DNA from: Flavobacteriaceae bacterium
GTDB lineage: Bacteria > Bacteroidota > Bacteroidia > Flavobacteriales > Flavobacteriaceae
DNA: 32,000 nt
Direction of reading: 5' to 3'
NCBI GenBank assembly: GCA_965224465.1
Contig: OZ245049.1
Location: 270,001-302,000, forward strand
Shown: piece after piece, positions 327 through 25,706 of the stretch
Layout: every line of letters starts with the position of its first letter
How positions within the stretch are numbered: position 1 is the stretch's first letter
Translations under genes and position numbers: made by a program
Notes under the pieces: generated by a model
What the model was told of the DNA's origin: nothing
Databases searched by the model: none
What the model saw: only the letters and a program-made list of their open reading frames with translations

Positions 327-1058
327 ATGAGTGTATCTGATGATATAAAAAGAATTTTATGGCACGAAATGGGACATTTATGTGTCGATACTATAAAGAT
401 AGAAACACATAATAATCTAAAAGTTAACTTATTAAATTTAACTGTTGCTAATGACGGTTTATTTAAATGGAGTGGTTTCGTAGAAATGCTTCCGAGTTTA
501 CCTTTTAAAGATATCCCTATAAATCACTCAATATTAGCATATTCGCTAATTAGTTTACAGGCTGGTTGTGTATTTGAGACTATCTATTTTCAAATTATAA
601 AAGAAAATTCATCAATAAATTTTGGAGATTGTTTTTCTTTTAATAGAGAATGCATTGGGAATGGAGATTGGACAAATTATCATGAAATTTTATCAAAAAT
701 ACGCGAGATCCATCCTGAATTTCGTGGTAAACTTGATTTGAATGGCTATTTGGAAATTGATTTTTCTAGATTAGTAAATATTGCACTTTTCAAGTTGTCA
801 GAATTCATTACAAAAATGAATGAAATAATTGATAATGAAGTTATTAAAATAGAGAAAGACTTTACAGGAAGAGATGGGGCTCATGGAATATATAGCTATA
901 ATTATAGTGGAGATGAGTTAACTGAGTTGATTAATAGAATAATACCATTAATGAATGAATTAGGGTTTAGAGATACTCTAATGGAACTTCATGAGTCATT
1001 TATTAAAAAATTCAGTGATTACATAGACAAATATGACGTAAGGTATAATATTATGTAA
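327..1058 (+). CDS. hypothetical protein with N-terminal HExxH (zinc-metallopeptidase-like) motif
   Basis: 243-aa ORF. HEMGH at residues 13-17 (LWHEMGHLCV). No signal peptide or TM segment. Very AT-rich coding sequence. I recognise no other family signature. Confidence 0.6.
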   Translation: MSVSDDIKRILWHEMGHLCVDTIKIETHNNLKVNLLNLTVANDGLFKWSGFVEMLPSLPFKDIPINHSILAYSLISLQAGCVFETIYFQIIKENSSINFGDCFSFNRECIGNGDWTNYHEILSKIREIHPEFRGKLDLNGYLEIDFSRLVNIALFKLSEFITKMNEIIDNEVIKIEKDFTGRDGAHGIYSYNYSGDELTELINRIIPLMNELGFRDTLMELHESFIKKFSDYIDKYDVRYNIM

Positions 1059-1246
1059 AATAGAATCCCGAGGCTAAACTTAGTCTCATTTAATTTTAGA
1101 TAAAACAATAGGAGAAATAAAAATGCGCACTTCAAATAGTTAGTAATTCGATTCGTTAAGAGTTTCAATTATACAGAGTATTTTCAAAGAATTGATTGAG
1201 AATCACTTCTTTGAAATACCAATAATAAAAAAAGGAAAAAAGACGA

Positions 1247-1536
1247 GTTGAAAGACTAAAGTTAACAAGTGTATAGCACTTTTAAGCAAGGATTATGCAG
1301 TTGGGGAAATTTTATACTCTTGTGGTAATCCACGAGAATGGTGTGAATTTTTTTATAACGTACATTTTATCGAATACGCGATTTTTAATAAGAGCAAAAA
1401 GGTTAACTTTTATTTTGGCGTTGGCAAGCGGCTGGAAATTGTGGTTTAAAAATAATTGCATTAGCAATTTTGTTTTAAGCAAACAATCGAGTGTTTGGCA
1501 GCGGCTATTTTAAATACTATAGAATTATAACTATCA
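1247..1536 (+). repeat. paralogous ~290-bp noncoding element, copy 1 (candidate structured RNA or element 'head')
   Basis: Co-linear nucleotide similarity to 7407-7697 (blocks TTGAAAGAC, CAAGTGTATAG, AAATTTTATACT, TTGGCGTTGGCAAGCG, CAATCGAG, GAATTATAnCTA). The ORF called here (1295-1513) is not conserved in the paralog. Confidence 0.6.
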
Positions 1537-1556
1537 AATACTGATACAAGTTCATA

Positions 1557-2028
1557 AGCCGTAATTTAGTTCACGCTATTCTTGTTTTTTTAAGACGTTC
1601 ATGAATCTCCTAAAGCCGTAATTCTTTTAACATAATATCTGACGATATAAGTCTAAAGACGTTATATCTGATATTATGTGTAAATAGCCTGATAAACGGC
1701 TATACAGAAATTAATGAGCCGTAATTTAGCTCACGCGTTTATATTTTATTGGAATTCATGAATCTCCTAAAGCCGTAATTTCTTTTAACATAATATCTGA
1801 CGATATAAGTCTAAAGACGTTATATCTGATATTATGTGTAAATAGCCTAAAAAACGGCTATACAGAAATTAATAAGCCGTAATTTAGTTCACGCTATTTT
1901 TTTTAAAAAGGAGTTCATAAATCTCCTAAAGTCGATTTCTTTTAACATAATATCTGACGATATAAGTCTAAAGACATTATATCTGATATTATGTAAAATA
2001 GCCGTGAAAAACGGCTATACAGAAATTA
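1557..2028 (+). repeat. tandem array of three ~158-bp units (160/158/154 bp), each with a long imperfect hairpin
   Basis: Units start at AGCCGTAATTTAG (1557, 1717, 1875). They are near-identical except for a ~20-nt T-rich segment after CACGC. Each has the hairpin ACATAATATC..GATATAA..GTC/GAC..TTATATC..GATATTATGT (unit 1: 1630-1679) and a TAGCC-N8-GGCTA stem. No conserved ORF. Confidence 0.85.
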
Positions 2029-2061
2029 CTTTAAATGTACTATAATGTTCTGCGTTATGTT

Positions 2062-2090
2062 ACTTTGCTTGGGTAAAGCAAAGTTTATTT
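2062..2090 (+). terminator. intrinsic terminator downstream of the tandem array
   Basis: ACTTTGCTT (2062-2070) pairs with AAGCAAAGT (2076-2084), a 9-bp stem with a 5-nt loop, followed by TTATTTAT. The minus-strand reading lacks a T-run. Confidence 0.55.
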
Positions 2091-2218
2091 ATCATAATTT
2101 TCTTCAAAAAAATATTTACCAAAAGTTTCTTCTACAATGTTAATGGAACACTTTTTACACGACGACGTAGGAGGGAAGTGTAAAGTGTGTGAAATGGAAA
2201 CAATAGACAATATATTAT

Positions 2219-2890
2219 TTATAAAAACAGCACTTTTTTTACAACATCAAAATAACGAGCGCTAACAGGAATTTTAATATCATTAATAGTTAAATCTTTA
2301 CCAACTAAAGAAGTGACAGCCTTTTTATTAATAATATAAGAACGATGTACTCTCATAAACAATGATTGTGGCAAACTTTCTTCTAAAGACTTTAAAGTTT
2401 GATAACTCATTATTTTTTTACCTTTCATATAAAAAACCACATATTCACTATCGCTTTGTATATATAAAATATCAGTAAATTTTATCTTATGTAAATCATA
2501 ACCAGATTTAATAGTAATGAATTCATTATCGCCAACTTTGATTTTTGATTCTATTTTATTAACTGCTTGTAAAAAACGTTCAAAAGTAATGGGCTTTAAA
2601 AGATAGTCTAACGCATTCAGTTCAAAACCATCTAACGCATATTCAGAATAGGCAGTTGTAAAAATAATTTTAGTACTTGAGGGAATCATTTTAGCAAAGT
2701 CCGTACCTTTTAAATCAGGCATTTGTATGTCTAAAAGAACCACATCAACAACTTCACTATTGAGGATTTCCATTGCATTAATTGGGCTTTCAAATGAACC
2801 AACCAACTCTAAAAAACCAGTTTTATCTACATACATTTTTAGCAATGTTCTTGCTAATTCTTCATCGTCTATAATTACACATTTAAGCAT
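2219..2890 (-). CDS. LytTR/AlgR-family response regulator
   Basis: Receiver domain (IIDDE..., VVLLDIQMPDLKG) plus C-terminal LytTR-type DNA-binding region (FMRVHRSYIINKK). Overlaps the upstream kinase gene by 8 nt. Confidence 0.9.
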   Translation of the reverse strand: MLKCVIIDDEELARTLLKMYVDKTGFLELVGSFESPINAMEILNSEVVDVVLLDIQMPDLKGTDFAKMIPSSTKIIFTTAYSEYALDGFELNALDYLLKPITFERFLQAVNKIESKIKVGDNEFITIKSGYDLHKIKFTDILYIQSDSEYVVFYMKGKKIMSYQTLKSLEESLPQSLFMRVHRSYIINKKAVTSLVGKDLTINDIKIPVSARYFDVVKKVLFL

Positions 2891-3911
2891 CGTTATTAAG
2901 TTTTAATTGTAATCTCACATCAAACACCTCATTACTATCACTTATTTGCAACTGATGCTTTTCGGGATACAAAATACGCAATCTCTTTTTTACATTCTCT
3001 AATCCTATGCCACCAACAGCATCTTTTTCTTTCGGTGTTTTGGGAATGCTGTTTCTTACCGAAAAATTAATTGTGGAAGCATCTGCTTTTAAATCAATGG
3101 TTATAAAACTATCTTTTTGTTTTCCAATAGAACTGTGTTTAAAGGCATTTTCAATAAAAGGAATAAATAACATTGGAGCCAACTTAATAGCATTGTTTTC
3201 AACATTAAAATTAGTTGTAATATTAAAAGGTTTGCTGCTTTTTAAGTTAAACAATCTTATATAATTATTAATATAGTTCACTTCCTTATCTATAGCTACC
3301 AAATTTCGCACACAATCATATAAAACATAACGTAACATTTCTGATAAATAACTAATACTTTCTTGTGTTTTAGGTGAATTTATTACCGATAAACTATAAA
3401 TATTGTTGAGTGCATTAAACAGAAAATGTGGATTTATTTGCGACTTCAATAACTTTAACTCCGTTTGTAATTGTTCATTCTTATTTTGTATCGTTTCTTT
3501 CTCTTTTTCGATGGCATAATAGACACTTTCAATCACAGTTGCAAGAATAAAGGAAAACCCTAGCATTAAGGTGTGATTTATAAAACGTGAAGGTTTATGT
3601 GGTGGCGGAAGTGGCACTGCATTTTCAACAACTAAAATTGGTACTTCTGGTAACGGAAAAATAACTGTAATCAAGAAGGCACAACTTATAGTTAAAATAA
3701 TTCCTAATAGGATGAATTGTAAATGTTTCTTCTTAAACAGCAACTTTGGGGCTAAATACCATATAATTAAAATGATAAAGACGCATTGAACTATAAAAAG
3801 ACAAATAGTTTCTAGTATAAATATAGTTTTTCCTACTTGTGAATTTGCAATAAATATTGCAAAAATTAACCAAAGAACTACTTGAAATAAAATGCGTTTT
3901 TGTCTGTTCAT
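2883..3911 (-). CDS. LytS/His_kinase-type sensor histidine kinase
   Basis: Several N-terminal TM segments, the NPHFLFNALNNI H-box typical of LytS-like kinases, and a C-terminal ATPase region (GGIGLENVKKRL). The ORF track starts at 3938. The ATG at 3909-3911 (MNRQKR...) looks the more plausible start. Confidence 0.85.
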   Translation of the reverse strand: MNRQKRILFQVVLWLIFAIFIANSQVGKTIFILETICLFIVQCVFIILIIWYLAPKLLFKKKHLQFILLGIILTISCAFLITVIFPLPEVPILVVENAVPLPPPHKPSRFINHTLMLGFSFILATVIESVYYAIEKEKETIQNKNEQLQTELKLLKSQINPHFLFNALNNIYSLSVINSPKTQESISYLSEMLRYVLYDCVRNLVAIDKEVNYINNYIRLFNLKSSKPFNITTNFNVENNAIKLAPMLFIPFIENAFKHSSIGKQKDSFITIDLKADASTINFSVRNSIPKTPKEKDAVGGIGLENVKKRLRILYPEKHQLQISDSNEVFDVRLQLKLNNDA

Positions 3912-4101
3912 AGTACAAATAAAGTTAAAAAAAATCAAATGGAATCAAAAATCAGCGATTCAAACAATAGTAATATCTACCCTCAACCGAATATAAAACG
4001 GTATTCACTTAAAAGTTCTTTTCGTTTACTGAAAACCCAAAATAGGCATTAATCTATTGCTCATCTTTGAGGTCATAAACACGAAACAAAATTCTTTTAT
4101 T

Positions 4102-4380
4102 ATGAGACAAAACAGATTTAAAACAGGAATGATTGTAGTGATTTTCTTTTTCTTCGGAATTACAATTTCGCAAGCACAATCTAGCAGACAGAAACCACAA
4201 AAGCCACCAAGGTTTAGCGAACTATTAAAACAAATGGATGCTAACGAAGACAACAAACTTTCAAAAAAAGAAATAAAAGGTTCTTTAAAAAATAATTTTT
4301 CTAAAATTGACTCCAATGAAGATGGGTTTATTACTAAAAAGGAATTTCAAAAAGCCCCAAAACCTAAAAGAACAAGATAG
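4102..4380 (+). CDS. secreted EF-hand calcium-binding protein
   Basis: Signal peptide (MRQNRFKTGMIVVIFFFFGITISQAQ) and two canonical EF-hand loops, DANEDNKLSKKE and DSNEDGFITKKE. The track start at 4057 lies upstream of the signal peptide, so I prefer the internal ATG at 4102. Confidence 0.8.
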   Translation: MRQNRFKTGMIVVIFFFFGITISQAQSSRQKPQKPPRFSELLKQMDANEDNKLSKKEIKGSLKNNFSKIDSNEDGFITKKEFQKAPKPKRTR

Positions 4381-4410
4381 TTTACATAAACAATAAACAA
4401 ATACTTAATT

Positions 4411-5421
4411 ATGAAAAAATCAATTTTAAAAACAACAATAGGTACATTAGTTTTATTAATGGGTCTATTAGTTATATCGTGTTCAAGCGATGATGAAACT
4501 TCTCCAGAAGAAGTAGATACCTCAAGTCATATTTTTAAAGCCGAATTATTAAATTCCGCAAATCTGTTAAGTTCAGTAACATTGGTAGATGCTACTTTAA
4601 CAGACGGAACAACTGCTCAATGCTACAAATTAGTATTCAAAAGTAATCCAGTAGAAGATGGTCCATATTGTCCAGAAACTATTAATGATATTGGTGGAAT
4701 TGGTATTTATGATGGAGCAACAAATCCAGGACTACAAGTTTTAAAGGCAACCTTATGGAATGCTATGGAAGCCGATGGTTATGATATTGTAGATACTAAT
4801 GGTAATATTAATTATAATGACCCAGGAAGTGGAGTTATGCCATCTGGACCAAGTTGTTTAGGGGCAACTCCAAATAATAATTTAGAATTGACGTATTTGA
4901 TTCCTGCTATACCAAAAACAGGTACTTCTGTTGATCAAATTAACGTTGTAGAAAATGTAGGTGTCTCATATAATGGTATTCCTTTGACAGGAAATCCACC
5001 ATCAGTTGTAAATGGCCCTCCAGGAATGGGAGGACCTCCAGGAATGTCGGGAGGTAACATTCCATCTATTGATCCTTGTGGTGGACATATAGACCCATTT
5101 GGCTATTATCATTTGCATTTTGCTCCATCTGAAATGAATAATGTATTAGAAGCACACGATATTAGTGATGTAAGTTGTACAAATTTTACACAAAGTGAAA
5201 TAGCATTTGTTGGTTTTGCAAAGGACGGATATCCTATGTATGCTTCTAAGGACGAAAACGGAACATTACCATCAGATTTAGATGAGTGTCAAGGACATAC
5301 TGCACCTACGGCAGATTATCCTGAAGGAGTATATCATTATCATGCCTCTAATTCATCGGCTCCTAATTTCCCAACTTGTTTAAAAGGAGTATCGGCAGAA
5401 GATTCTTTAACGTATCAATAA
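4411..5421 (+). CDS. YHYH-motif domain lipoprotein
   Basis: Lipobox (LLVISC). Conserved blocks GYYHLHF, AKDGYPMY, LDECQGH and YHYHA match the uncharacterised YHYH protein family. Paralog of 6170-7072. Confidence 0.8.
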   Translation: MKKSILKTTIGTLVLLMGLLVISCSSDDETSPEEVDTSSHIFKAELLNSANLLSSVTLVDATLTDGTTAQCYKLVFKSNPVEDGPYCPETINDIGGIGIYDGATNPGLQVLKATLWNAMEADGYDIVDTNGNINYNDPGSGVMPSGPSCLGATPNNNLELTYLIPAIPKTGTSVDQINVVENVGVSYNGIPLTGNPPSVVNGPPGMGGPPGMSGGNIPSIDPCGGHIDPFGYYHLHFAPSEMNNVLEAHDISDVSCTNFTQSEIAFVGFAKDGYPMYASKDENGTLPSDLDECQGHTAPTADYPEGVYHYHASNSSAPNFPTCLKGVSAEDSLTYQ

Positions 5422-5427
5422 AAAAAG

Positions 5428-6066
5428 ATGAAAAAATTAATTTTAATAGTAGCATTGGTATTTGCAGTTTGCAATGCCAATGCTCATAATCCAGAAACAG
5501 CATCAGTTTATGTAAAGCCAATTAACGGAATTTGGGTAATGCAATTGTCGTTTTCGCAAACAGGTGTACATAATGCACTCACTAAATCTTATACAGATAT
5601 TGATTGGAATACGATATCAACTAATGAATACAAAACAAAATTTATTAGTTATTTAAAGGAGCATCTCGATTTAGATGTCGATGGTCAACATATTGCAATA
5701 ACTTCAGGAGGTATTAAACTAGGAAGTCATCAAACAGATGTAAAACTTTTGTTGCCTGATTTTCCAAATGAATTTAAAAGCGTAACAGCAAATTTTGATA
5801 TTCTTAATGAAAACTCAAATCAAAATACAGTGGTTAGTTTTCAGAATGGTGAAAAATCAGTTAGAAAAATATTGAATAATAAAAACGGCTTTTTAATTAG
5901 TTTTGATAATAGCGTTCAAGGTTTCAACTTGATTGATAATAAAACAAAAAGCAAATTTAATTATTTGTATGTGATTTTTATAGTAGGTGTTATTTGTTTA
6001 GGAGTCTATTCGCTTTTTATTTATAGAAAAAGAAAAGAGTCGACACCAAATTTGGTAATACAATAA
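5428..6066 (+). CDS. hypothetical secreted protein with C-terminal membrane anchor
   Basis: Signal peptide ending ANA|H, so the predicted mature N-terminus is His. Single C-terminal TM (YLYVIFIVGVICLGVYSLFIY) followed by RKRK. The gene starts 7 nt after the upstream stop, so it is probably operonic. Confidence 0.7.
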   Translation: MKKLILIVALVFAVCNANAHNPETASVYVKPINGIWVMQLSFSQTGVHNALTKSYTDIDWNTISTNEYKTKFISYLKEHLDLDVDGQHIAITSGGIKLGSHQTDVKLLLPDFPNEFKSVTANFDILNENSNQNTVVSFQNGEKSVRKILNNKNGFLISFDNSVQGFNLIDNKTKSKFNYLYVIFIVGVICLGVYSLFIYRKRKESTPNLVIQ

Positions 6067-6169
6067 TTAATGATGAGATAAAACGAGAAAATAATTTTCA
6101 GTAACTTTATGATTATGAATGTGTGCAATTATGAAAACATCTGAAAATGTTAACTTTTAAAACAAAAAA

Positions 6170-7072
6170 ATGAAAAATTATCTATATTTAGCAATAACCA
6201 TAGTGATAGTAGGTTGTAATTCTCATACGAGTAAGAAAAGTTCAAAAACTGAATTAAAAACAACTAATCTCGCAGAATTAAATTTCACTAAAAATTACGA
6301 AATCATTAGTAAAGAATTTAAAACTGAAACGTATGTTACAGTTAATGCTACTAATAGAATTATGAAAACCAATGGTTTGCCAAATCATAAAACTGGAATT
6401 TTCCCTAATGAAGGAAATCCTAATACTATTTCGGCTCAAAATTTAACGTATAAATTTCCTGTGAATCCTAAATTTAGTAAAGAATCTAAATGGGCAAGAG
6501 AACCAGGTGTTGCGCTAAATGGTATTAAATTTGAACCAGAAACTGCTGAAAGATTTGTTTGTGAAACAGGAGAAGTATACAAAATTGAAGCTTTTCAAGA
6601 ATTAGTAGATATTGGACTTGATTTTAATCGTGCACACGTTCAACCAACAGGAGCTTATCATTATCACGGAGTTCCTACTGAATTAATAAAAGTACTAGAT
6701 AAAGGAAAAGATATTATTTTGATTGGATATGCAAAAGATGGCTTTCCAATTTATCATTCTAAAAGCGGAAAATATAAACCAAGCTATCAATTGGTTAAAG
6801 ATTTAAGAACTGGAGATATATGTTCTTACAAAAACCCTAAATTAACCCTAAATGAAAGTTTAAAAGACACCAAACCAGATGGAACTTTTGTTTCAGATTG
6901 GGAATACGTAAACGGATTAGGCGATTTGGATGAATGCAATGGAATAGAATTGAACGGAGAATACTCTTATTTTGTCACGAATGAATATCCATATATGAGT
7001 AGGTGTTTAAAAGGTGAATTTATTGAAGAAGCTCCAAAAGGACCACCTCCAGGTCAACATCCTCATAAATAA
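6170..7072 (+). CDS. YHYH-motif domain lipoprotein (paralog)
   Basis: Lipobox (IVIVGC). Blocks GAYHYHG, AKDGFPIY and LDECNG shared with 4411-5421. Pro/Gly/His-rich C-terminus (PKGPPPGQHPHK). Confidence 0.8.
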   Translation: MKNYLYLAITIVIVGCNSHTSKKSSKTELKTTNLAELNFTKNYEIISKEFKTETYVTVNATNRIMKTNGLPNHKTGIFPNEGNPNTISAQNLTYKFPVNPKFSKESKWAREPGVALNGIKFEPETAERFVCETGEVYKIEAFQELVDIGLDFNRAHVQPTGAYHYHGVPTELIKVLDKGKDIILIGYAKDGFPIYHSKSGKYKPSYQLVKDLRTGDICSYKNPKLTLNESLKDTKPDGTFVSDWEYVNGLGDLDECNGIELNGEYSYFVTNEYPYMSRCLKGEFIEEAPKGPPPGQHPHK

Positions 7073-7406
7073 GATATAAATTAAAAATTCTTAGGTAGTT
7101 TTTTAAAACGACCTCATAAAACTTTGGTTAAACAATAGGAGAGTGGAGCGTCTATATTTTAGGGATTTAGTAACTAATATTTTTGGTTTTTCTAAATATG
7201 AAAGCAAGTTATTTATAGTATTGGTTTGTTACAATGTTTCCTGAAATATAGCGTAACGAACCGTAATTGTTTCCAAAGTTTTTGTGCAGTCTTGATTTTT
7301 TTATTTCTTTTTTTATTAAGAAAAAAAGATAAGAATGAAAAGATTGAGAGTTCAAAAGTTGAATTTCTATTTTACATAATATTAATAGTTACAATTTAAA
7401 AAAGTT

Positions 7407-7697
7407 CAATTGAAAGACGAAACGAGCAAGTGTATAGAAATTTTAAAGCGTAGATAATGCGGTTGAAAATTTTATACTGTTGCGTAAAGTTTACTAAATG
7501 TTAATGAGATTTTTTTACAACGAGAAGATCAATGCAATTCCTGAATTTAATTAGAAGCTAAAAGGTTTTGCTTTTTTTGGCGTTGGCAAGCGATGGATAA
7601 TTGTGTTTAAAAAAATTACTGCGACAGCATAATTATTTTTAAAAAGCAATCGAGCGTTTGCGAGCGGCAATTTTACATAATGACGAATTATAGCTAC
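7407..7697 (+). repeat. paralogous ~290-bp noncoding element, copy 2
   Basis: Same ordered sequence blocks and nearly the same length as 1247-1536. No ORF of 60 aa or more is called here. Confidence 0.6.
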
Positions 7698-7849
7698 AAA
7701 TGTATAAACGGAAAGTTTCTGAGAATCGCGTATTTAAAAATACTTAAAACCATTGTACAGAATATTAGATTTAAACGTACTATTAAAACACTAATATTTG
7801 ATGACCCAAGTAATACGGTTTATTATGTGTACAGAACATTCTGGGATAT

Positions 7850-7922
7850 TTAACATAATATAGAATTATAGCTATCTAATTTTAATGAAATGGATTTGTA
7901 CTATAATTTACATTATGTTAAA
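7850..7922 (+). repeat. long hairpin homologous to the hairpin of the 1557-2028 tandem units
   Basis: TTAACATAAT (7850-7859) pairs with ATTATGTTAA (7913-7922). AATTATAG (7864-7871) pairs with CTATAATT (7901-7908). The flanks TTAACATAATAT...ATTATGT(G)TAAATAG match the tandem-unit hairpin, but the interior differs. Confidence 0.5.
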
Positions 7923-8451
7923 TAGAAATAGTTACATAACATATGCTATCCTTTTGTTCGAAATCTTAAACGTTTGAAAACGGATACTGTGTTTTTGAGA
8001 ATCAGATATTATGGACCACACTGCGTATTTATTAATCTATAAGATTCTCAGATCGATAGTTATTCAATATATAAAATCCTGTCTACGTTTACATAGTTAC
8101 AACGAATAGATAATCCCTACGGATTACAACATCTTAGAATTATATTAACTATAAAGAAAGCAATTAAGTTCATAGATGTATAATACAAACTAAAATGATC
8201 AGTATAAATTATTTTTGTACGTTCTAGTGTTGGTGAAAAATAATTCTAGTACTAAGCACTAAACCGTCTCAGTTGGAAATTTATTTGGGATTAATACAAC
8301 AATCGCCAATGTCTATATCAATTGATAACTTATTAGTTATTGACTATGTGGATCAAAAATGCACAAGAATTTAGCCATTATCTGCATTTCTTCTATTGGA
8401 TGTCAATTAACAAAATTAAAACCCGCATACTAACAGTTTAGTGAGTGGCAG

Positions 8452-8634
8452 TTATTGCTCAATACTTTCTACTTGAAAACAGGTACATTCACCTTCTTGG
8501 TAGTGCACAGAAACCTGGATTGGATTACAGCAAACCTCACAGTCCTCTATATAAACCTGTTCCCTTATAGAAGGATCTAAAAGCATACTTATTTGTTCGT
8601 TACAATAAGGGCAAAAAAAGGGATGTTCTTCCAT
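8452..8634 (-). CDS. CPXCG-motif cysteine-rich (zinc-ribbon-like) small protein
   Basis: CPYC ... CEVCC cysteine pairs in a protein of about 60 aa, as in the CPXCG family. The start at MEEHPFF (8634) is preferred over the track start at 8655. Confidence 0.65.
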   Translation of the reverse strand: MEEHPFFCPYCNEQISMLLDPSIREQVYIEDCEVCCNPIQVSVHYQEGECTCFQVESIEQ

Positions 8635-8911
8635 AATAAATGATAATCTAACCATAAAGATACATTATTTTAAAGAAGCCTCTATACGAATCAACTATAT
8701 TATACAGCTGATCAAGTAATTAAAAAAAACACAATCAAATCAATGTTCAATAAATGTAACTACTACAACTGTAAAACCTTTATATAAGCATCTTGAACAC
8801 GCATGATTTTGGTTTAAAATTGGTATACCTAGGTGCTTTCTGACAGTATAACAATAAGAATCATTCAAAAAAAACTAACTTAGGAACAAAACCATTATTT
8901 AATTTACAAGT

Positions 8912-14548: not shown

Positions 14549-16924
14549 ATGAAACATTTTTTTATATGCTGTGTATTCCTGAGCATACAAACACTATTTG
14601 CTCAAGAAGAATTCACAATTCACGGTACGATTACCGACGCTTCTAATGGCGAAGCTTTATTTGGTGCTACCGTTTATTTTCAAGGAAGTACTTCTGGTAC
14701 CACCACAAACGAATACGGTTTTTATTCTATCGCTGCCCCAGAAGGAAAATACACATTAATTGTCTCTTATATTGGATTTAAAGAATTGGAAAAAAAGATC
14801 CTACTAAATGCAAAACTACGGTTGGATTTGGAAATAAGCTCTGGCGAAAATCAATTGAACGAAGTTGTAATTACATCCGAAGGATCGGGGAAAATTAATA
14901 TAAGAAAACCACAAATGAGCGTGGTAAAGCTTCAAGCAGCAACCATCAAACGAATCCCCGCAGTTTTAGGAGAAATAGATGTGATTAAGACCATACAAAT
15001 GTTACCTGGCGTTACTAATAACGGAGAAGGAAGTTCGGGATTTAATGTGCGAGGAGGTGCGGTAGATCAGAATTTAGTTCTTTTAGACGAAGCTATTATT
15101 TACAATACATCACACTTTTTTGGTTTGTTTTCTGTCTTTAATAATGATGCTATCAAGGATGTAAAATTGTATAAAGGAGACATTCCTGCAAAATTTGGAG
15201 GAAGAATTTCGTCCGTATTGGATGTAAGACAAAAAGAAGGAAACAGAAAGAAGTTTTCTGTAAATGGAGGTGTTGGACTTATTTCTAGTAGGCTTAGTTT
15301 AGAAGGGCCTCTGTATAATGGGAAAGGTTCGTTCTTACTTGCTGGTAGAACTACGTATGCTCAGATTTTTATGAGAATGAATGATAAACTAAAGAATAAC
15401 ATTATTAGCTTTTATGATGTAAACCTTAAAACTAATTATCGTCTAAATGATCGCAATACATTCTTTCTTTCTGGCTATTTTGGGCGTGATGAATTTAATA
15501 TTAACAACACCTTAGAAAATAATTATGGAAATGTGTCCGCAAATTTAAGGTGGAACCATATTTTTAATGATAAGTTGTTTTCAAATTTATCTCTCGTTTA
15601 TAGTAAATATGATTACCAGTTTATTTTAGATTTTATAAAACTAGATTGGATTTCAAATATTAAGAACTACAATGCTAAATATGACCTACGCTATTATGCG
15701 AATGATCATTTTAAAATAGATGCTGGCGCAAGTATTATCAAATACAACTTGAATCCTGGTCAGATAAGTCCTACAGCTGCTGACTCCCCTATAAACCCTT
15801 TAAAATTAGACGAAAAAAGAGCTTTCGAAAGCGGTTTGTATCTTAGCGTAGCACATGAGATTAACAATAGATTAACCGCACAATACGGATTGAGATACAG
15901 TCATTTTAATCGCTTAGGTGGACAGGATGTTAAATTGTACGCATCAGATGCCCCTGTGGTATACAATACTCTTTTAGGTGTCTATGAAAAAGGAACCGTT
16001 GTAGGTAGGAAAAGCTATTCAAAGGGATCCTCAATTAAAAAATTCGGTAATTTTGAACCACGATTAGGGCTTTCTTATCAATTTAATGAAACAAGTTCTT
16101 TTAAAGGGAATTATACTCGTTCTGTCCAATATTTACATTTATTATCCAATACTTCTACCGTAACTCCTTTGGATGTTTGGACCACAAGTGGAAAGTATAT
16201 TAAACCTCAGAAATCAGATCAATTTGCTCTTGGTTATTATAAGACAATTTTAAATCAGAAATACACCTTTGAATTGGAAGGGTATTATAAAACAACGGAC
16301 AATAGAATTGATTATATAGATGGTTCAGATTTAATTGGAAATAATAGGATCGAAACCGAAATTTTAAATGGGGAAGCACGTGCCTATGGTATGGAACTAA
16401 TGTTACGTAAAAATACGGGAAATTTTAGGGGTTGGATTGCCTACACTTTATCAAAAGCATCACAACGTACACTTGGTGGAAAAGCCGGTGGACCAGGGAT
16501 AAATGAGGGGAAATGGTACCGTACCTCTTATGATAGAACACATGATATATCGATAACTGCGAGCTATAAAAAAAATGAGGTTTGGTCTTTTAGTGCCAAT
16601 GCTATTTATCAAACAGGAAGACCTGTAACGTATCCTAATGCTCAATACGATTACGAGGGGATTTCTATCACAAGTTATTCGGATAGGAATACAAACCGAT
16701 TGTCTGCATATCACCGCTTGGATATTTCTGCAACCTATATTGCCTCTAAAAATAAGCACAGAAATTGGAAGGGCGAATGGATTTTTGGAATCTATAACCT
16801 GTACAATCGAAAAAATGCGGCCTCTGTATCTTTTTCACAAAACCAGCAAACGGGAATCAATGAAGCTACTCGTACCTCTATTTTTGGAATCATTCCATCC
16901 ATTACTTATAACTTTAAATTTTAA
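14549..16924 (+). CDS. TonB-dependent receptor with N-terminal carboxypeptidase-regulatory-like domain
   Basis: Signal peptide, a CarboxypepD_reg-like start (TIHGTITDASNGEALFGATVY), a plug region and a long beta-barrel with alternating pattern ending in terminal Phe (ITYNFKF). Confidence 0.9.
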   Translation: MKHFFICCVFLSIQTLFAQEEFTIHGTITDASNGEALFGATVYFQGSTSGTTTNEYGFYSIAAPEGKYTLIVSYIGFKELEKKILLNAKLRLDLEISSGENQLNEVVITSEGSGKINIRKPQMSVVKLQAATIKRIPAVLGEIDVIKTIQMLPGVTNNGEGSSGFNVRGGAVDQNLVLLDEAIIYNTSHFFGLFSVFNNDAIKDVKLYKGDIPAKFGGRISSVLDVRQKEGNRKKFSVNGGVGLISSRLSLEGPLYNGKGSFLLAGRTTYAQIFMRMNDKLKNNIISFYDVNLKTNYRLNDRNTFFLSGYFGRDEFNINNTLENNYGNVSANLRWNHIFNDKLFSNLSLVYSKYDYQFILDFIKLDWISNIKNYNAKYDLRYYANDHFKIDAGASIIKYNLNPGQISPTAADSPINPLKLDEKRAFESGLYLSVAHEINNRLTAQYGLRYSHFNRLGGQDVKLYASDAPVVYNTLLGVYEKGTVVGRKSYSKGSSIKKFGNFEPRLGLSYQFNETSSFKGNYTRSVQYLHLLSNTSTVTPLDVWTTSGKYIKPQKSDQFALGYYKTILNQKYTFELEGYYKTTDNRIDYIDGSDLIGNNRIETEILNGEARAYGMELMLRKNTGNFRGWIAYTLSKASQRTLGGKAGGPGINEGKWYRTSYDRTHDISITASYKKNEVWSFSANAIYQTGRPVTYPNAQYDYEGISITSYSDRNTNRLSAYHRLDISATYIASKNKHRNWKGEWIFGIYNLYNRKNAASVSFSQNQQTGINEATRTSIFGIIPSITYNFKF

Positions 16925-16928
16925 AATC

Positions 16929-17777
16929 ATGCGTTTTCTAAAAATACAACTAATTGCAATTATCTTTTTGGGAAGTATCCTGAATTCTTGTACGGAAGTT
17001 ATAGATGTAGATTTAAAAGAGGCGACTCCTACATTGGTAATTGAAGCTTCTCTGGATTGGAAAAAAGGGACTTCAGGAAACCAACAAACAATAAAACTTA
17101 GTTGGTCTCGCCCTTATTTTGATACCAGTTCGTTTCCCGTAACTGGAGCGTCTGTAATCGTTACAAATACCAGTACCAATGCTGTTTATAATTTTATTGA
17201 TCAACAAAACGGACAGTACGCAGTGGCTGATTTTTTACCAGTAATAAACAATACATATCAATTAACAATTCTTGTAGATGGTATTAGTTATTCCGCAACG
17301 GAAACCTTGATTGCCGTGCCTGAATTTAGTCGAATTGAACAAACAATAGATGGTGGTTTTGATGATGAAGCCCTAGAAGTGACTTTCTATTTTAACGATC
17401 CTACAGATGTTTCTAACAATTATTTGTGTTCTTTTCAAGAAGAAAGTGATCTTTTCCCTGTATTTAGAGAGTTTTCTGATGAGTTTACAAGCGGAAACGA
17501 ACTATTTAACTTCTATGAAAAAATAGATGATGAAGAAGCAGATGTAGAAGCGTTTATCCCTGGAGATAAAGTACAAATTAAATTGTATGGTATTTCTGAA
17601 CAATACTATAATTACATGAAATTATTATTAGAACAATACAATAATGGTGGTGACCCGTATAGTGCAATTCCTGCGAAATTAAAAGGGAATTGTATCAATA
17701 AAACATCCCCTTCTAGCATTGTTTTTGGTTATTTTAGATTGACGGAGTATGTAGAAGAAACCTATGTTTTTGAATAA
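16929..17777 (+). CDS. DUF4249-like lipoprotein partner of the TonB-dependent receptor
   Basis: The ATG lies 4 nt after the receptor stop. Lipoprotein signal (MRFLKIQLIAIIFLGSILNSC). The size and position match the DUF4249 partner usually found after this receptor type. The track ORF start at 16638 lies inside the receptor gene and is rejected. Confidence 0.65.
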   Translation: MRFLKIQLIAIIFLGSILNSCTEVIDVDLKEATPTLVIEASLDWKKGTSGNQQTIKLSWSRPYFDTSSFPVTGASVIVTNTSTNAVYNFIDQQNGQYAVADFLPVINNTYQLTILVDGISYSATETLIAVPEFSRIEQTIDGGFDDEALEVTFYFNDPTDVSNNYLCSFQEESDLFPVFREFSDEFTSGNELFNFYEKIDDEEADVEAFIPGDKVQIKLYGISEQYYNYMKLLLEQYNNGGDPYSAIPAKLKGNCINKTSPSSIVFGYFRLTEYVEETYVFE

Positions 17778-18660: not shown

Positions 18661-20163
18661 TTATTTATCAACAGGCTTCCAATTTTGAGGCAGTAACTCC
18701 GAAAGTTTATTAGCCTTATGTTCTGGTAATCTATTAAGGACATCACATAGCCACGTATGTGGGTTTACGTTATTCTTTTTGCAAGTAGCAAAAAAGCTAT
18801 AAAATAGAGCTATGTTTTGTGCGGACTCATGACTGCCAGCAAAGAGATAATTTTTTCTGCCAATAGCTAAAGGTCTTATGGCATTTTCTATATTATTGTT
18901 GTCTATTTCAAACCTGCCATCATCGATGTATAGTTTTAGGTTTTGCCATATTTTAAGAGTATAAGCAATTGCTTTTCCTATGGCACTTTTAGGCAGTACG
19001 TTTTTTCGCTCTTTTGTAAGATAAATTTCTATTCCGTCTAAAACAGGTGATGCATGTTTTTCTCTATATGCTTTAGTTTGCTCAATAGTTAATTCTTGTT
19101 CTTTTATTTTACGTTCTATCTTGTATAGCTTTTGAATTTCCAACAAAACAACATCCGCTCTTTTAGGATCATTATCCAGCGCCTTCTCAAAATACCGCCT
19201 AGCATGAGCCATGCAACCTAAAAGAGTAATTTCTCCTTTTGTTGTTAAGTTTTGGTATGCAGCATACCCATCGGACTGTAGTGTCCCATTGAAATCTTTA
19301 AAAAACTCTTCTGGAACAACTTTTCCTCTCCCTTTATTGTATTCAAAAAGAACTAAATTTTTAACAGGATTTCGATACACCCACATATACCCTCTGTGTG
19401 TTGATTTTTTCTTGTCTTTATCTAAAACCTTTATAGGAGATTCGTCTGCTTGAATATAATTGGCATTTTCTAAAAACTGAGCCTTAAATGTATCGTATAA
19501 AGGAGCGATAAGCTCCGAACTTTTAGATACCCATCCTCCAATTGTTGATTTACTTACTTTTAAATCTTGTCGTTTAAAAATTTGAATTAATCTGTAAAGT
19601 GGTAAATGGTCTACAAATTTTGAAATAAGTATAAAGGCCAATAAACTTGCTGATGCATTTCCTTTAGGTATCGGTAAGCTTGGTAATTCTGCTATAACAA
19701 CGCCTTTTTCTTCCGGAAGTGCATATTTAGGTCTTACAATTCGTCTTACAAAAACGGAAAGAGGCGTTATTTCTAAAAGTTCTGTAACTTCTTCTCCTAT
19801 TTTTACAGCTCCTTCTTCTATGTGCTTAGGCTCTATAATCTCTTCTACTCGCGGAAAATGCGCAGGTATAGAAGAGCGAACAGGTTTTTTCTTTCCTTTC
19901 TTCTTTTGTTTTCTTTCGTAGATTACAATATGTTTTTTGTATGCCTCTTCTTTCTCAGCTATTATTTTTCCGAAAAGCGACAATTGATTTGTGTCAACAG
20001 GGATAAAACGTTCGCTTTTAGACCCGAAAACCATTCTTTTAAGCTGCTCGTATTGCTGCTTAATTTCAGCTAGTTCTTGAGCTGTTTTTTCAAGTTCAAT
20101 CTTTAAAATTACCAGCTCTTTTTGTATGTCTATTGTATTGTTTTCCACACTATAAATATACAA
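18661..20163 (-). CDS. tnpC: IS66-family transposase TnpC
   Basis: 500 aa. N-terminal coiled-coil/leucine-zipper-like region, a DDE-region pattern (IQADESPIKVLD) and a C-terminal region typical of IS66 transposases. Confidence 0.9.
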   Translation of the reverse strand: MYIYSVENNTIDIQKELVILKIELEKTAQELAEIKQQYEQLKRMVFGSKSERFIPVDTNQLSLFGKIIAEKEEAYKKHIVIYERKQKKKGKKKPVRSSIPAHFPRVEEIIEPKHIEEGAVKIGEEVTELLEITPLSVFVRRIVRPKYALPEEKGVVIAELPSLPIPKGNASASLLAFILISKFVDHLPLYRLIQIFKRQDLKVSKSTIGGWVSKSSELIAPLYDTFKAQFLENANYIQADESPIKVLDKDKKKSTHRGYMWVYRNPVKNLVLFEYNKGRGKVVPEEFFKDFNGTLQSDGYAAYQNLTTKGEITLLGCMAHARRYFEKALDNDPKRADVVLLEIQKLYKIERKIKEQELTIEQTKAYREKHASPVLDGIEIYLTKERKNVLPKSAIGKAIAYTLKIWQNLKLYIDDGRFEIDNNNIENAIRPLAIGRKNYLFAGSHESAQNIALFYSFFATCKKNNVNPHTWLCDVLNRLPEHKANKLSELLPQNWKPVDK

Positions 20164-20206: not shown

Positions 20207-20560
20207 TTATTTAGCCTCTAAATAACGTTCGTTTTTCTGAGTATTTATAATACTAATTCCGTCTAAAACCATAACCATTTGGGTATAACTCAAAACTACT
20301 AATCCATCTTCAATGTCGTATTTTGGAAGCTCAAAAATACCTCGTTCCAATCGTTTATAATACAGTACAAATCCTCCAGGTCGCCAATGAAGAAGTTTTA
20401 GTTTATTTTTTTGCTTATTGATAAATGCATAAACACTATTTCTATCTCGCTCTTGTTCCATGTGCTCACTAACTAATCCACTTAATCCATTAAATCCTTT
20501 TCGCATATCAACTGCAGATAAGTGATAATAATACGTGTGTTCTGTACCTAATCCTAACAT
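20207..20560 (-). CDS. tnpB: IS66 Orf2-like accessory protein TnpB
   Basis: 117 aa. MRKGFNGLSGLV...KLKLLHWRPGGFVLYYKRLERGIFELP matches the IS66 Orf2 family pattern. Confidence 0.9.
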   Translation of the reverse strand: MLGLGTEHTYYYHLSAVDMRKGFNGLSGLVSEHMEQERDRNSVYAFINKQKNKLKLLHWRPGGFVLYYKRLERGIFELPKYDIEDGLVVLSYTQMVMVLDGISIINTQKNERYLEAK

Positions 20561-23047: not shown

Positions 23048-24358
23048 TTACACAATAGATACGCGTACTTTCTTTTTCTTTAGTCGTGAATTGTTTAGAT
23101 TACTTACCAATTGATCTGCTATTTTTTTAGGAACGGCTACAAATGCACAATCCTGTTTCAGTTCTATCACTCCAAGTTGATCTTTAGTCAAGTTGCCTTG
23201 TTTAAAAAACAATCCAGCAATATCTCCTTTAGAAATTTTGTCTTTTCTACCACCAGAAATAAATAAAGTCACCCATTTTGGTGCTTTTCTTGTGCTTTTT
23301 TCCGATAATTTTATCACTTTAGAATTGTGTATAAAATCGGGTAAACGATCATCTTTGTGTTTTAAAACATAGGCTGTCCCAGACTCGTCTACACGTGCTG
23401 TACGCCCATTTCTATGGGTAAACTCTTCCTCTTTTAAAGGCAATTGATAATGTATAATAAACTTTAAAGCTGGAATGTCTATCCCACGTGCCGCTAAATC
23501 TGTAGCTACAATTATTTGATGCGTTCCATTTCTGAATTTTATCAAAGAACGTTCTCTGTCCTTTTGCTCCATTCCTCCGTAAAAACAACCGTGTTTGATG
23601 CCTTTCTCGTCTAAATAACGACTGACATCACTTATTGTGTCTTTTAGATTACAAAATACAATACCAGGCGTATTCCCAACATGATTTAAGACATCAACCA
23701 AAATCTGCATTTTATTTTTAGAGGGAGACATCACTGTTTGAAGAGTCAGGTTGGAACTGCGTTTCTTTAAGAAATTCACCACTGTATGCTTTCCTAATTT
23801 CGCAAATTCAGGAATTTCCAATTCTTGGGTAGCAGAGGTTAAAATCCGTTTGTCAATACTTGGTAATTCATGAATTATCCCACGCATTTCATATTCAAAA
23901 CCAACTTCTAAAGACTTGTCAAACTCGTCCAAAACCAATGTTTTAATAAAGTCCCTAGAAAAACGCTCACGACTAAAATGATCCGCAATACGTCCAGGTG
24001 TTCCTATTAAAATTGCGGGCGTGTGTTTCAATTCTATTTTGTCCTTAGACATGGCTCTTCCTCCATATACCGCATTTACTTTATACCCAGAGCCAAGTTC
24101 TCTAACTACTTGCTCTATTTGAATAGCCAACTCTCTAGAAGGTACTAAAATTAATGCCTGCACCTCTTTACTTGCTGGATCTAATCGATCGATTAGCGGG
24201 AGTAAAAACGCCAAGGTTTTTCCTGTTCCAGTAGGCGATAAAATAACGACATTACTATGTGATTCTATGGCTTCCAGTGCTTTATTCTGCATTGGATTCA
24301 ACTCCTTGATATTTAATTTATCAAGCATTTCTTGCTGATGTTTTATTGTATTTGCCAT
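23048..24358 (-). CDS. DEAD-box-family RNA helicase with DbpA-like C-terminal domain; motif II is DEFD
   Basis: Motif I SPTGTGKT, motif II VLDEFD, SAT, and motif VI HRNGRTAR. The C-terminus (WVTLFISGGRKDKISKGDIAGL...) resembles the DbpA RNA-binding domain. The start at MANTIK (24358) is preferred over the track start at 24394, which overlaps the upstream gene. Confidence 0.85.
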   Translation of the reverse strand: MANTIKHQQEMLDKLNIKELNPMQNKALEAIESHSNVVILSPTGTGKTLAFLLPLIDRLDPASKEVQALILVPSRELAIQIEQVVRELGSGYKVNAVYGGRAMSKDKIELKHTPAILIGTPGRIADHFSRERFSRDFIKTLVLDEFDKSLEVGFEYEMRGIIHELPSIDKRILTSATQELEIPEFAKLGKHTVVNFLKKRSSNLTLQTVMSPSKNKMQILVDVLNHVGNTPGIVFCNLKDTISDVSRYLDEKGIKHGCFYGGMEQKDRERSLIKFRNGTHQIIVATDLAARGIDIPALKFIIHYQLPLKEEEFTHRNGRTARVDESGTAYVLKHKDDRLPDFIHNSKVIKLSEKSTRKAPKWVTLFISGGRKDKISKGDIAGLFFKQGNLTKDQLGVIELKQDCAFVAVPKKIADQLVSNLNNSRLKKKKVRVSIV

Positions 24359-24359
24359 C

Positions 24360-25706
24360 TTATTTTTTCTTCTTTTTCTTTGTTGATTTATCACTGACCA
24401 CAGCGCTAGTACCTGTTTGATTTACCAGGTAATGTGCCAGTACTTTTTCTACCAATTCCTCTTTTGTTAAATGATGAAATATCGTGTGTATTTGTTTTTT
24501 AAACTGAGCTGTTACCTCTCTATTGGGCTTAATTTTAAAAATTTTCTTAGCCCATAACAAACCGTTATTTTCTTCAATACTTTGAGCATCGGCTTTTTTA
24601 AATTTAGAAAATTTAATGCCCAATGCTTTTTCAAAATCATTAATATCTTCTTCCTCTTCCTTTTGCAATACAGTCAGAGAGAAACCTTTGGCTCCTGCCC
24701 TAGCCGTTCTTCCACTTCTGTGAACATAAGTTTCGTAAACTTCTGGTAAATGGTAATTCACAACATAGGAAATTTCCTTTATATCAATACCACGAGCAGC
24801 TAAATCTGTAGCGACCAATATGTTTATTTGTCCCATTCTAAACTGCCCCATAATACGATCTCTAATCCCTTGGCTTAGACTTCCATGTAAAGCGCCAGAA
24901 GAGAATTTATTAATCGCTAAATTCTTTGCCAATTTATTCACTGCAGCTTTGGTTTTGCAAAAGATAATTCCGCGTTCACCTTCCCTCGAAGTTAAGAAAT
25001 GCATCAATACATCCAATTTTTCTATAGGTGCTACAACTACATATTGATGGTCTATTCCTTGATGACCAACAGTTTCCATATCTGCACTTACTTGCGTAAC
25101 ATGCTTGGACATGTAATTTTGAATTAATTGCTTGATATTTCCTGGCATGGTAGCCGTAAACAGTAGCGTACGGTATTTTTCTGGCAATACCGCTACAATT
25201 TTATCCAAGCCATCTTTTAAAGAAGTAACCATTTCATCAGCCTCGTCCAAAACCAAATAATTGGTGTTTTTAAGATTGACGTTATTTCGTTGAATTAAAT
25301 CTATTAAGCGCCCTGGAGTGGCTACAATTATATGTGTGGCTTCTTTAAGACGTTCAATTTGAGGCTTGATAGGAACCCCTCCACAAATGGATGCGATAGA
25401 TACTGCTGGAAGCTGACTCGCAAAAGAAACTAAATTTGTATATATCTGTTGTCCCAACTCGCGTGTTGGAGCAAGAATCACTGCTTGTATTTTTGGGTTT
25501 TCTGGATCAATTAATTGCAGTAAAGGCACACCAAAAGCAGCTGTTTTCCCCGTTCCTGTTTTTGCCAATCCAACAAAATCATCTTCTTGATTTAATAAAA
25601 CGGGAATTGATTTTTCCTGAATGCTTGTAGGTATGGTAATCTTAAGTTTGGCTAAGCCTAAAACTAAAGAAGAGGAAACTCCTAAAGCGGCAAATTGTTG
25701 TGACAT
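24360..25706 (-). CDS. DEAD-box ATP-dependent RNA helicase
   Basis: Motif I AKTGTGKT, DEAD (VLDEADEM), TAT and HRSGRTARAG. Lys-rich C-terminal tail (KSTKKKKKK). Confidence 0.9.
   Translation of the reverse strand: MSQQFAALGVSSSLVLGLAKLKITIPTSIQEKSIPVLLNQEDDFVGLAKTGTGKTAAFGVPLLQLIDPENPKIQAVILAPTRELGQQIYTNLVSFASQLPAVSIASICGGVPIKPQIERLKEATHIIVATPGRLIDLIQRNNVNLKNTNYLVLDEADEMVTSLKDGLDKIVAVLPEKYRTLLFTATMPGNIKQLIQNYMSKHVTQVSADMETVGHQGIDHQYVVVAPIEKLDVLMHFLTSREGERGIIFCKTKAAVNKLAKNLAINKFSSGALHGSLSQGIRDRIMGQFRMGQINILVATDLAARGIDIKEISYVVNYHLPEVYETYVHRSGRTARAGAKGFSLTVLQKEEEEDINDFEKALGIKFSKFKKADAQSIEENNGLLWAKKIFKIKPNREVTAQFKKQIHTIFHHLTKEELVEKVLAHYLVNQTGTSAVVSDKSTKKKKKK

Follow-up and report, generated by a model that had tools for sequence, protein, structure and literature searches.

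The window analysed here is a stretch of 32,000 nt from a Flavobacteriaceae bacterium (contig OZ245049.1, positions 270,001 to 302,000) with two loci free of open reading frames (ORF), locus I and locus II (7073-8451). By sequence comparison, locus II was found to hold the predicted chromosomal dif, i.e. the XerC/XerD dimer-resolution site, at 7896-7923. Positions 7113-7925 were one copy of a ~0.8-kb ORF-free element which, where this could be checked, was present at a single locus per genome in ~100 Flavobacteriaceae species. Both loci are best explained (probability of about 0.6) as parts of tandem, Xer-dependent integrative cassettes located at dif, similar to integrative mobile elements exploiting Xer (IMEX) and having a structured non-coding backbone in common.

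A preliminary description of the same DNA had proposed homology of locus II with locus I and a hairpin unit of one kind in both, and this was confirmed: 330 nt were paralogous between 1210-1539 and 7370-7701 (E = 7e-44), and the tail motif between 1503-1539 and 7844-7880 (E = 5e-6). All nine exact matches to TTTWACATAAT in the window were within the two ORF-free loci, which together with the shuffled folds and the conserved alignment columns reported below placed the similarity beyond chance. The features that had been listed (GAATTATAGCTA at 7685-7696 and 7863-7874, GAATTATAACTA at 1522-1533, ACATAAT at 7675-7681, ATTATGT at 7822-7828, and the dyads) were also present at these positions.

The dif site and the dif-like sites of locus II

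The recurring motif was a bipartite 11-6-11 unit (ATTT(T/A)ACATAA, 6 nt, ATTATAGCTA(C/T)), and the final 11 nt of its reverse complement (ATAGCTATAAT-TCTATA-TTATGTTAAAT) were the XerD arm of E. coli dif (GGTGCGCATAATGTATATTATGTTAAAT, i.e. GGTGCGCATAA-TGTATA-TTATGTTAAAT). What had been taken for the repeat unit of an array thus appears to be a recombinase site. The site at 7896-7923 had the dif format (11-bp arms, 6-bp centre, and an inner palindrome of the CATAA/TTATG type), and agreed at 26 of 28 positions (2 mismatches) with the Gramella forsetii dif, whose predicted position is the GC-skew shift point of that genome (TTGTACTATAATTTATATTATGTAAAAT; delta 0.003; Kono et al. 2011, PMC3025954 supplement). 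It was also similar to the predicted sites of Robiginitalea (TTGTCCTATAATTTATATTATGTTAAAT; Kono et al. 2011, PMC3025954 supplement), Flavobacterium johnsoniae and F. psychrophilum (PMC3025954). Compared with E. coli dif, the XerD arm was identical and the centre matched at 4 of 6 positions. No other match to the Gramella dif was found in the 32-kb window (0 expected by chance). Because 7896-7923 matches published dif predictions and is the single such site in the window, locus II is taken to contain the chromosomal dif. The GC skew of the window changed sign near 8 kb, but was noisy.

Three further sites, at 7369-7396, 7670-7697 (DR1) and 7848-7875 (DR2), are on the same grounds predicted to be reversed dif-like sites (Table 1). 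The first was complementary to 7906-7929 (24 nt, 88%), and the box at its position occurred in either orientation among other subfamilies. DR1 was kept in nearly all relatives, directly after AGCGGCWA. DR2 and the predicted dif form the terminal hairpin, which would be an inverted pair of Xer sites with the intact chromosomal dif as its 3' arm. Both strands of 7840-7930 folded into a hairpin (z -4.4 and -5.2), and none of 200 shuffles folded equally well.

Locus II matched the family consensus over three blocks and retained all sites. Its left junction J1 was merely a degenerate form of the start sequence of relatives, followed by CGACCTCATAAAAC. The left end of relatives (ATATTATGTAAAATAGAAT-CTCGATGTTAAACTTGGCCTCATAAAA) consisted of an XerD arm plus flank, with unconserved XerC-arm positions, and lay 0-50 nt past the stop of a variable same-strand gene; the element was always 3' of a gene on its own strand. 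The spacer at 7698-7847 carried the conserved TGACCCAAG ... CTTCTGGGAT, and consensus positions 552-699 mapped to 7797-7926. The ORFs of locus II reached 57 aa at most, and none of its reading frames was conserved.

The tail of locus II beyond dif (7925-8451; 525 nt) had no blastn or tblastx similarity to any of ~240 related loci, and all its ORFs were of 33 aa or less. The looser motif copy (GAATTATATTAACTA, 8137-8151) and the dyads past 7925 that had been assigned to the array (TGAGAATC/GATTCTCA and TAATCC-CTAC-GGATTA) were present in this tail, but fall outside the element. A GATATTATGG stretch of the tail recalls an XerD arm.

Some copies of the element in relatives (related loci are designated by L numbers) diverged at or within DR1 after AGCGGCWA (L006, L034, L040 and L062; L024, L041 and L113) and continued into other conserved sequences, as ...CTACGAAGTAATCACGAGG... 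or as ...CCGCC..GGCGGACAGGCGTCACGAC. Another element may have been inserted at the reversed Xer site in these copies. A dif-like site was also found in a marine Microviridae genome from Ciona gut (L177, MH572525.1), at 4492-4522 (ATTTTACATAC-TATAAA-TTATAGAACAA). It was intergenic, after the Rep gene, and matched the reverse complement of the Flavobacteriaceae dif at 26 of 28 positions; from its sequence it is likely an attP for Xer-mediated lysogeny in a flavobacterial host.

Conservation, strand-specific structure and optional presence

Relatives were searched for in one genome per species, with an 18-nt block common to both paralogs (16-nt core TTGGCGTTGGCAAGCG, then ATCGAG 40-70 nt on). At least 119 stretches matched; among those listed, about 110 belonged to Flavobacteriaceae or related Bacteroidota (genera including Aquimarina, Maribacter, Zobellia, Tenacibaculum, Polaribacter, Lacinutrix and Algibacter), and the others were chance matches in GC-rich genomes. 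Many columns were more than 90% conserved in an alignment from -450 to +650 around the block (85 sequences: ~80 relatives plus the two window copies). The motif copies at 7685-7696 and 7863-7874 and the hairpin at 7850-7922 had fixed positions and orientations in ~100 genomes. Six records had more than one match, always in adjacent 8-kb bins, and no organism had matches on two contig records (both among the matches listed). Nucleotide identity of the element was 77-94%, against 55-81% amino acid identity of the adjacent MFS protein (r = 0.27). The dif-MFS/CPXCG neighbourhood was kept across genera and the side of dif on which the element lay was constant, and subtypes A-D were patchy across genera and co-occurred in one genome. 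No recurrent neighbouring protein family was evident in the at least 119 loci listed, most clusters being untyped.

Folding was strand-specific. The core had a minimum free energy of -67.3 kcal/mol on the + strand (z -4.0) against -31.8 kcal/mol on the - strand (z +0.55), the 5' module, folded as RNA, of -65.1 kcal/mol (z -4.8) against -38.3, and the core of locus I of -67.6 (z -4.45) against -40.9. In helix H1, 8 of 16 pairs were changed on both sides (e.g. AU:33/GC:21 and UA:32/CG:22) and one G-U was invariant; 98.5% of cells were paired, compared with 37-45% with the partners slid, and the covariation score was 0.223 against 0.100 in shuffles (0 of 500). The central hairpin was retained in 58 of 60 sequence variants, with stems TTGC/GCAA, ATGC/GCAT, TGTT/AACA and ACGC/GCGT. 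Conserved helices and compensatory changes on one strand, as looked for in a generic test of structured non-coding RNA (ncRNA), were found. The asymmetry between strands was obtained with DNA parameters as well as with RNA parameters, and the fold therefore does not separate RNA from single-stranded DNA (ssDNA). These folding models point to the + strand as a functional single-stranded form of the backbone, which would be either a transcript (ncRNA or untranslated region) or transferred ssDNA with origin- or packaging-like signals, with RNA slightly favoured.

Variation within the core was modular. Elements that were nearly identical elsewhere differed in having one or another of four interchangeable H1 loops (mosaicism), and an H1-loop insert of ~80 nt (L032, L035, L061, L097 and L117) had GTTCGTGAATCTCCTAAAAAGTCGATTTC, resembling GTTCATGAATCTCCTAAAGCCGTAATTC of the locus I tandem unit (window 1590-1625). 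A hairpin-forming insert of ~16 nt occurred at two places of the core, after GGCAAGCG in L080 (TCCCGAAGCTTCGGGA, a perfect palindrome) and after AATCGAG in L097 (TCCCGAAACTTCGGGA).

The presence of the element at dif was polymorphic, as in IMEX. A metagenome scan with the exact 23-nt dif core gave 120 sites. The core of the element was upstream in 15 of the 89 sites with at least 600 nt upstream, and dif was plain in 71 of the 98 sites with at least 400 nt. Among the plain dif loci were some (L229, L223) that adjoined an MFS-like gene, as occupied loci did. Between the metagenomic loci L287 and L250, the DNA downstream of dif was 95.8% identical, whereas the elements, of different subtypes, were just 82% identical. 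At four metagenomic dif sites without the core (L184, L230, L294 and L295), the 'TGACGATAT' hairpin module was directly upstream with or without DR2; modules of the element therefore occur independently.

Other identities were considered and rejected. Extreme conservation and the ends of contigs of metagenome-assembled genomes had prompted the possibility of a rRNA-operon flank; neither the window nor 144 kb of related loci contained rRNA or tRNA. A MITE (miniature inverted-repeat transposable element) or a transposon with terminal inverted repeats disagreed with the direct ends (ATATTATGTAAAATAGAAT) and with the occurrence of all copies seen per genome at one locus. Binding sites of the LytTR regulator were discarded as the LytTR-histidine kinase pair is just one of many cargoes, and a small-protein gene as the 72-aa ORF at 1295-1513 was not retained in locus II. 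With respect to a plasmid or phage origin, there was no blastn match except for the 31-nt dif-like site of one microvirus, and all IMG/VR matches to the 16-mer were chance matches. Rfam had no gathering-score match, either in the window or among 18 related loci; when E was allowed up to 10, all matches were at chance level.

Table 1. Positions of the features of locus I, of the cargo between both loci, and of locus II in the window
Feature	Position	Strand	Remarks
Locus I left junction J1, AATATTATGTAAAATAGAAT	1047-1066	+	XerD arm 1051-1061 overlaps stop of ORF 327-1058
Locus I element	1085-1535	+	Partial 5' module 1085-1189, core 1222-1507, degenerate DR1 1508-1535
'TGACGATAT' hairpin module	1554-2028	+	Three tandem 157-nt copies
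Locus I right junction	2035-2215	+	XerC arm ATGTACTATAA (2035-2045), then TGTTCTGCG-TTATGTTACTT and 150-170-nt 3' module
Unit 2 cargo	2219-7072		LytTR response regulator and histidine kinase (-); two YHYH proteins and 212-aa protein (+); from Pfam
Locus II left junction J1, decayed	7073-7112	+	XerD-arm half-site remnant, directly after stop of YHYH gene (6170-7072)
5' module	7113-7345	+	77% identity to consensus positions 1-217
Predicted reversed dif-like site, ATTTTACATAA-TATTAA-TAGTTACAATT	7369-7396	-	
Structured core	7421-7669	+	Helix H1, conserved block, central hairpin
Helix H1	7426-7444 paired with 7466-7483	+	Covariation
Conserved block, TTGGCGTTGGCAAGCG	7577-7592	+	Pairs with 7646-7669 through G-U-rich pairs
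Central hairpin of core	about 7606-7645	+	
DR1, predicted reversed dif-like site, ATTTTACATAA-TGACGA-ATTATAGCTAC	7670-7697	-	First motif copy of the preliminary description
Spacer	7698-7847	+	Hairpin AATATTAG/CTAATATT at 7761-7768 / 7791-7798
DR2, predicted reversed dif-like site, ATTTAACATAA-TATAGA-ATTATAGCTAT	7848-7875	-	5' arm of terminal hairpin; second motif copy of the preliminary description
Loop of terminal hairpin	7876-7895	+	'TGACGATAT' hairpin module inside loop in some relatives
Predicted chromosomal dif	7896-7923	+	XerC arm TTGTACTATAA, centre TTTACA, XerD arm TTATGTTAAAT
Lineage-specific spacer	7924-8451		Between dif and CPXCG gene (8452-8655, -); outside element

Unit layout, proposed integration and rival explanations

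Two continuations were found in relatives after the XerC arm TTTGTACTATAA: the canonical centre plus XerD arm (TTTATA-TTATGTAAAAT; 71 places), and TGTTCTGCG-TTATGTAACTT plus a conserved 3' module of 150-170 nt (38 places in many genera, as counted by junction pattern). With these alternative continuations, the breakpoint is therefore at the boundary between XerC arm and centre, which is the position at which XerC cleaves in the established Xer mechanism. The order element, XerC arm, 3' module, cargo of 2.5-8 kb (mostly + strand), half-site, element and dif was observed in more than 25 genomes. The window followed this layout, with a unit at 2046-7906 bounded by the XerC-arm junction (2035-2065) and by dif (7896-7923). 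No recombinase was found among the ORFs of the window's unit with Pfam.

Locus I had no dif and had the alternative XerC-arm junction (2035-2065) in its place; the consensus of the 3' module agreed with 2046-2197 (82% identity, E = 3e-36). Compared with the family consensus, the 5' module of locus I had an internal deletion of ~130 nt. Its array of the 'TGACGATAT' module had a period of 157-158 and 3.0 copies with 88% matches in Tandem Repeats Finder. In relatives the module was single-copy, between DR2 and dif (L096, L295, L294 and L184; 96% identity in L096). Because of the deletion, the degenerate DR1 and the triplicated module, it is locus I, and not locus II, that is read from the alignments as the rearranged copy.

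Among the cargo of relatives were genes for a type II methyltransferase, for Upx, for an IetS-like protease and for a DpdJ/Mko-like helicase, besides DUF2130 and a beta-lactamase-family protein. Where cargo genes ended at the XerD half-site (L008, L024, L062, L069, L084 and L023), they were often of the anti-phage defence type (those just named, the methyltransferase as MTase/RM, other than the beta-lactamase-family protein), which gives dif in these genomes the look of a hotspot for defence islands. The 3' module (window 2046-2215; L013, L015, L054, L069 and others) had a hairpin with covarying stems (CACTTTTTATGC...GCATAATGTGTG against CACTTTTTACAC...GTGTAAAGTGTG). Its loop (GACGACGTAGGAGGGAAG) had a perfect Shine-Dalgarno-like AGGAGG ~9 nt before a conserved ATG/GTG, and the first cargo gene usually began 10-300 nt beyond this ATG/GTG. 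A role of this hairpin as leader or promoter of the cargo is possible.

In the proposed model, an integrated unit would run from the 3' module, which follows the breakpoint after the XerC arm, through cargo, half-site J1, 5' module, core, DR1, spacer, DR2 and loop, up to the next XerC arm and its breakpoint. Exchange exactly at the boundary of XerC arm and centre would link the units head to tail, and the last unit of an array would be completed by the true dif with its centre and XerD arm. Unit 1 would extend from outside the window (ORF 327-1058 included) to 2045, and unit 2 from 2046 to 7906, followed by the dif centre and XerD arm. DR2 and dif would be an inverted pair arranged exactly as after the integration of a folded single strand in the manner of CTXphi, with regeneration of dif, and the + strand would be the one that such single-strand integration inserts. 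An excised circle would carry, across the cargo, a junction of DR2, loop and TTGTACTATAA with TGTTCTGCGTTATGTAAC and the 3' module. Integration would be catalysed by host XerC/XerD, and units are presumed to move between genomes. It is further suggested, tentatively and at somewhat less than even odds, that cassettes often devoted to anti-phage defence are carried by Xer into dif and share as their sole backbone ~1 kb of structured non-coding DNA, with no protein encoded by the element. The folded + strand of the backbone would then be the recombination substrate, perhaps with a function in transfer, replication or activation of Xer. This would amount to a new kind of mobile cassette system, comparable to integrons or IMEX but driven by a non-coding element.

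Several observations weigh against Xer-dependent cassettes. No excised circle was found, nor any circular or viral contig with the core, forms which are poorly sampled; the core was not found in IMG/VR or in phage or plasmid collections either, so that no free form is known. Genes for XerC and XerD are absent from the 32-kb window, and binding of the sites by both proteins is predicted. J3 and J1, the sites on either side of the cargo, are directly oriented and the XerC arm of J1 is unconserved, so that further steps have to be added to a simple two-site Xer model. No covariation between DR2 and dif was seen at the variable XerD-arm base (complementary in 6 of 60 non-consensus cases), and perfect pairing of the hairpin is therefore not under visible selection. 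No promoter of Bacteroidetes type (TTG...TAnnTTTG) was found upstream of the core. Strong purifying selection acting on a resident RNA is another possible cause of the high conservation.

Such a resident RNA would be the product of one or more vertically inherited ncRNA genes flanking dif, up to ~1 kb with the 3' module and with incidental Xer-like sequences. Their extra copies would have arisen by segmental duplication, and variable genes would gather at a plastic terminus. This is considered unlikely. The strong + strand structure, the covariation and conserved G-U pairs, a conservation far above that of the neighbouring gene, and the maintenance across genera of the dif-MFS/CPXCG neighbourhood, always with the same side of dif, would all be accounted for. 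The absence of the core from about 85% of metagenomic dif sites, and from dif loci adjoining an MFS-like gene, would not, and neither would subtypes which are patchy across genera and co-occur in one genome, different subtypes within near-identical chromosomal flanks, or breakpoints exactly at Xer cleavage positions. An integrated ssDNA phage (microvirus, PhiCjT23/FLiP-like or filamentous), decayed after Xer integration to an att and an origin remnant, is improbable: neither core nor modules were similar to any phage or IMG/VR contig, phage genes did not recur beside the element, and scars would not keep 77-94% identity and compensatory changes across genera. It does agree with the integration of Bacteroidetes ssDNA phages at dif, with the 26/28 dif-like intergenic site of the marine microvirus, and with the CTX-like geometry of inverted sites.

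The preliminary description had regarded locus II as a tandem array of the locus I hairpin unit that was older and had decayed or diversified. Motif and hairpin flanks are indeed common to both loci, but this interpretation is very improbable and was abandoned: locus II has no tandem repeat (the sole array of the window being that of 3x157 nt in locus I) and keeps all consensus sites and modules, the unit triplicated in locus I is single-copy in relatives, and positions and orientations of the motif are fixed in ~100 genomes. Chance similarity in AT-rich intergenic DNA is scarcely credible for 7113-7923 in view of the E values above, of a dif 28-mer with 0 expected matches, and of at least 119 matching stretches, ~110 of them in Flavobacteriaceae or related Bacteroidota; with ~30% GC in the window, it could account for the dyads of 7925-8451 and for the looser motif copy at 8137-8151. 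A degraded protein gene across the gap, which the preliminary description had raised against its own interpretation, is just as hard to sustain for 7113-7923 with no ORF of more than 57 aa or conserved frame and with a pattern of covariation that follows helices and not codons. Tandem Xer-dependent cassettes at dif thus remain the preferred reading.

Remaining features and comparison with known systems

Elsewhere in the window, an IS66-family transposase gene (DDE_Tnp_IS66, E = 1e-93; 18661-20163, -) with a small upstream ORF (20207-20560, -) belongs to an unrelated insertion sequence. Two adjacent DEAD-box helicase genes (23048-24394 and 24360-25706, -) overlapped by 35 nt, one having a DbpA RNA-binding domain. 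A TonB-dependent receptor ORF (14549-16924) and a DUF4249 ORF (16638-17777), both on the + strand, overlapped by ~290 nt; the start of the DUF4249 ORF was probably mis-called in the mechanical ORF list.

The predicted dif pinpoints where dimers are resolved in this genome. In many marine Flavobacteriaceae, dif would be a hotspot where cassettes accumulate, with restriction-modification, Upx, IetS-like and Dpd/Mko-like genes there in relatives. The element is an undescribed and widespread non-coding element, absent from Rfam, more conserved than its MFS neighbour and structured on one strand. If it is mobilised by Xer, the biology of IMEX and dif modules would be extended to Bacteroidota, and this would be the first such element with a purely non-coding conserved part, raising the question of what recruits Xer in place of FtsK or a protein activator. 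For annotation, long ORF-free gaps of this kind are neither junk nor decayed repeats.

The 28-bp 11-6-11 site is the same as in the dif/XerCD system, to which three reversed dif-like sites and a 0.8-kb structured element before dif are added here. Integrons are similar in their arrays of promoter-less or short cassettes and in structured, strand-specific sites abutting the stop of the upstream gene, and differ in that there is no attI here and that the element between cassettes is of ~1 kb, compared with 60-140 bp. An integron cassette array with attC sites was rejected, as the sites match dif and not attC (R''/L''-L'/R') and no IntI integrase was found in the window. Rcd RNA, transcribed from plasmid cer sites, is non-coding, hairpin-rich, strand-specific and adjacent to an Xer site, and in the f1/M13 intergenic region and miniphages a cis element is sufficient to replicate and package ORF-less ssDNA. 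Both resemble the element by description alone, and differ from it in size and architecture.

In Acinetobacter, pdif/dif modules are small gene modules between XerC/D sites which shuffle among replicons and carry accessory cargo; their flanking sites are inverted (C/D - D/C), and they are mostly on plasmids and without a common non-coding backbone (PMC6449649, PMC12907356). Here, in contrast, direct sites (2035-2065 and J1) flank the cargo, the chromosomal dif is the place of the array, and between cassettes there is a structured element of 1 kb. The ssDNA prophages of Bacteroidetes are flanked by dif motifs and have no integrase (PMC3091885, PMC9719478); the Alpavirinae BMV1-7 (PMC3091885) and PhiCjT23-like (PMC9719478) proviruses are of 4.6-8.4 kb and have Rep and capsid genes. 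They share with the element the phylum, the target and the lack of an integrase, and some have an extra inverted dif-like site, whereas the element has no Rep or capsid genes and nothing in common with them in sequence beyond the att site. The literature searched (IMEX of Vibrio and others, Acinetobacter dif modules, and Bacteroidetes ssDNA prophages) had nothing like this non-coding backbone.

Integration of CTXphi-type IMEX reportedly proceeds through an attP formed by a hairpin of ssDNA (Val et al. 2005, as cited in PMC3091885). The present units differ from these IMEX in having no phage genes and no conserved protein, in a conserved part which is ~1 kb of non-coding DNA, and in a cargo of cellular and defence genes. 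They resemble them in lacking their own recombinase in the window's unit, in forming tandem arrays at dif, and in having the junction at the XerC cleavage position. DR2 (7848-7875) and 7896-7923 formed a hairpin (z -4.4) with centres of unequal length, which, as in the attP of CTXphi, is an inverted dif-like pair in which the centre does not match (7 nt, compared with 6 or 9 nt), beside what would be a regenerated dif. As in CTXphi, too, the strand predicted to integrate (+) is the strand with the conserved secondary structure.

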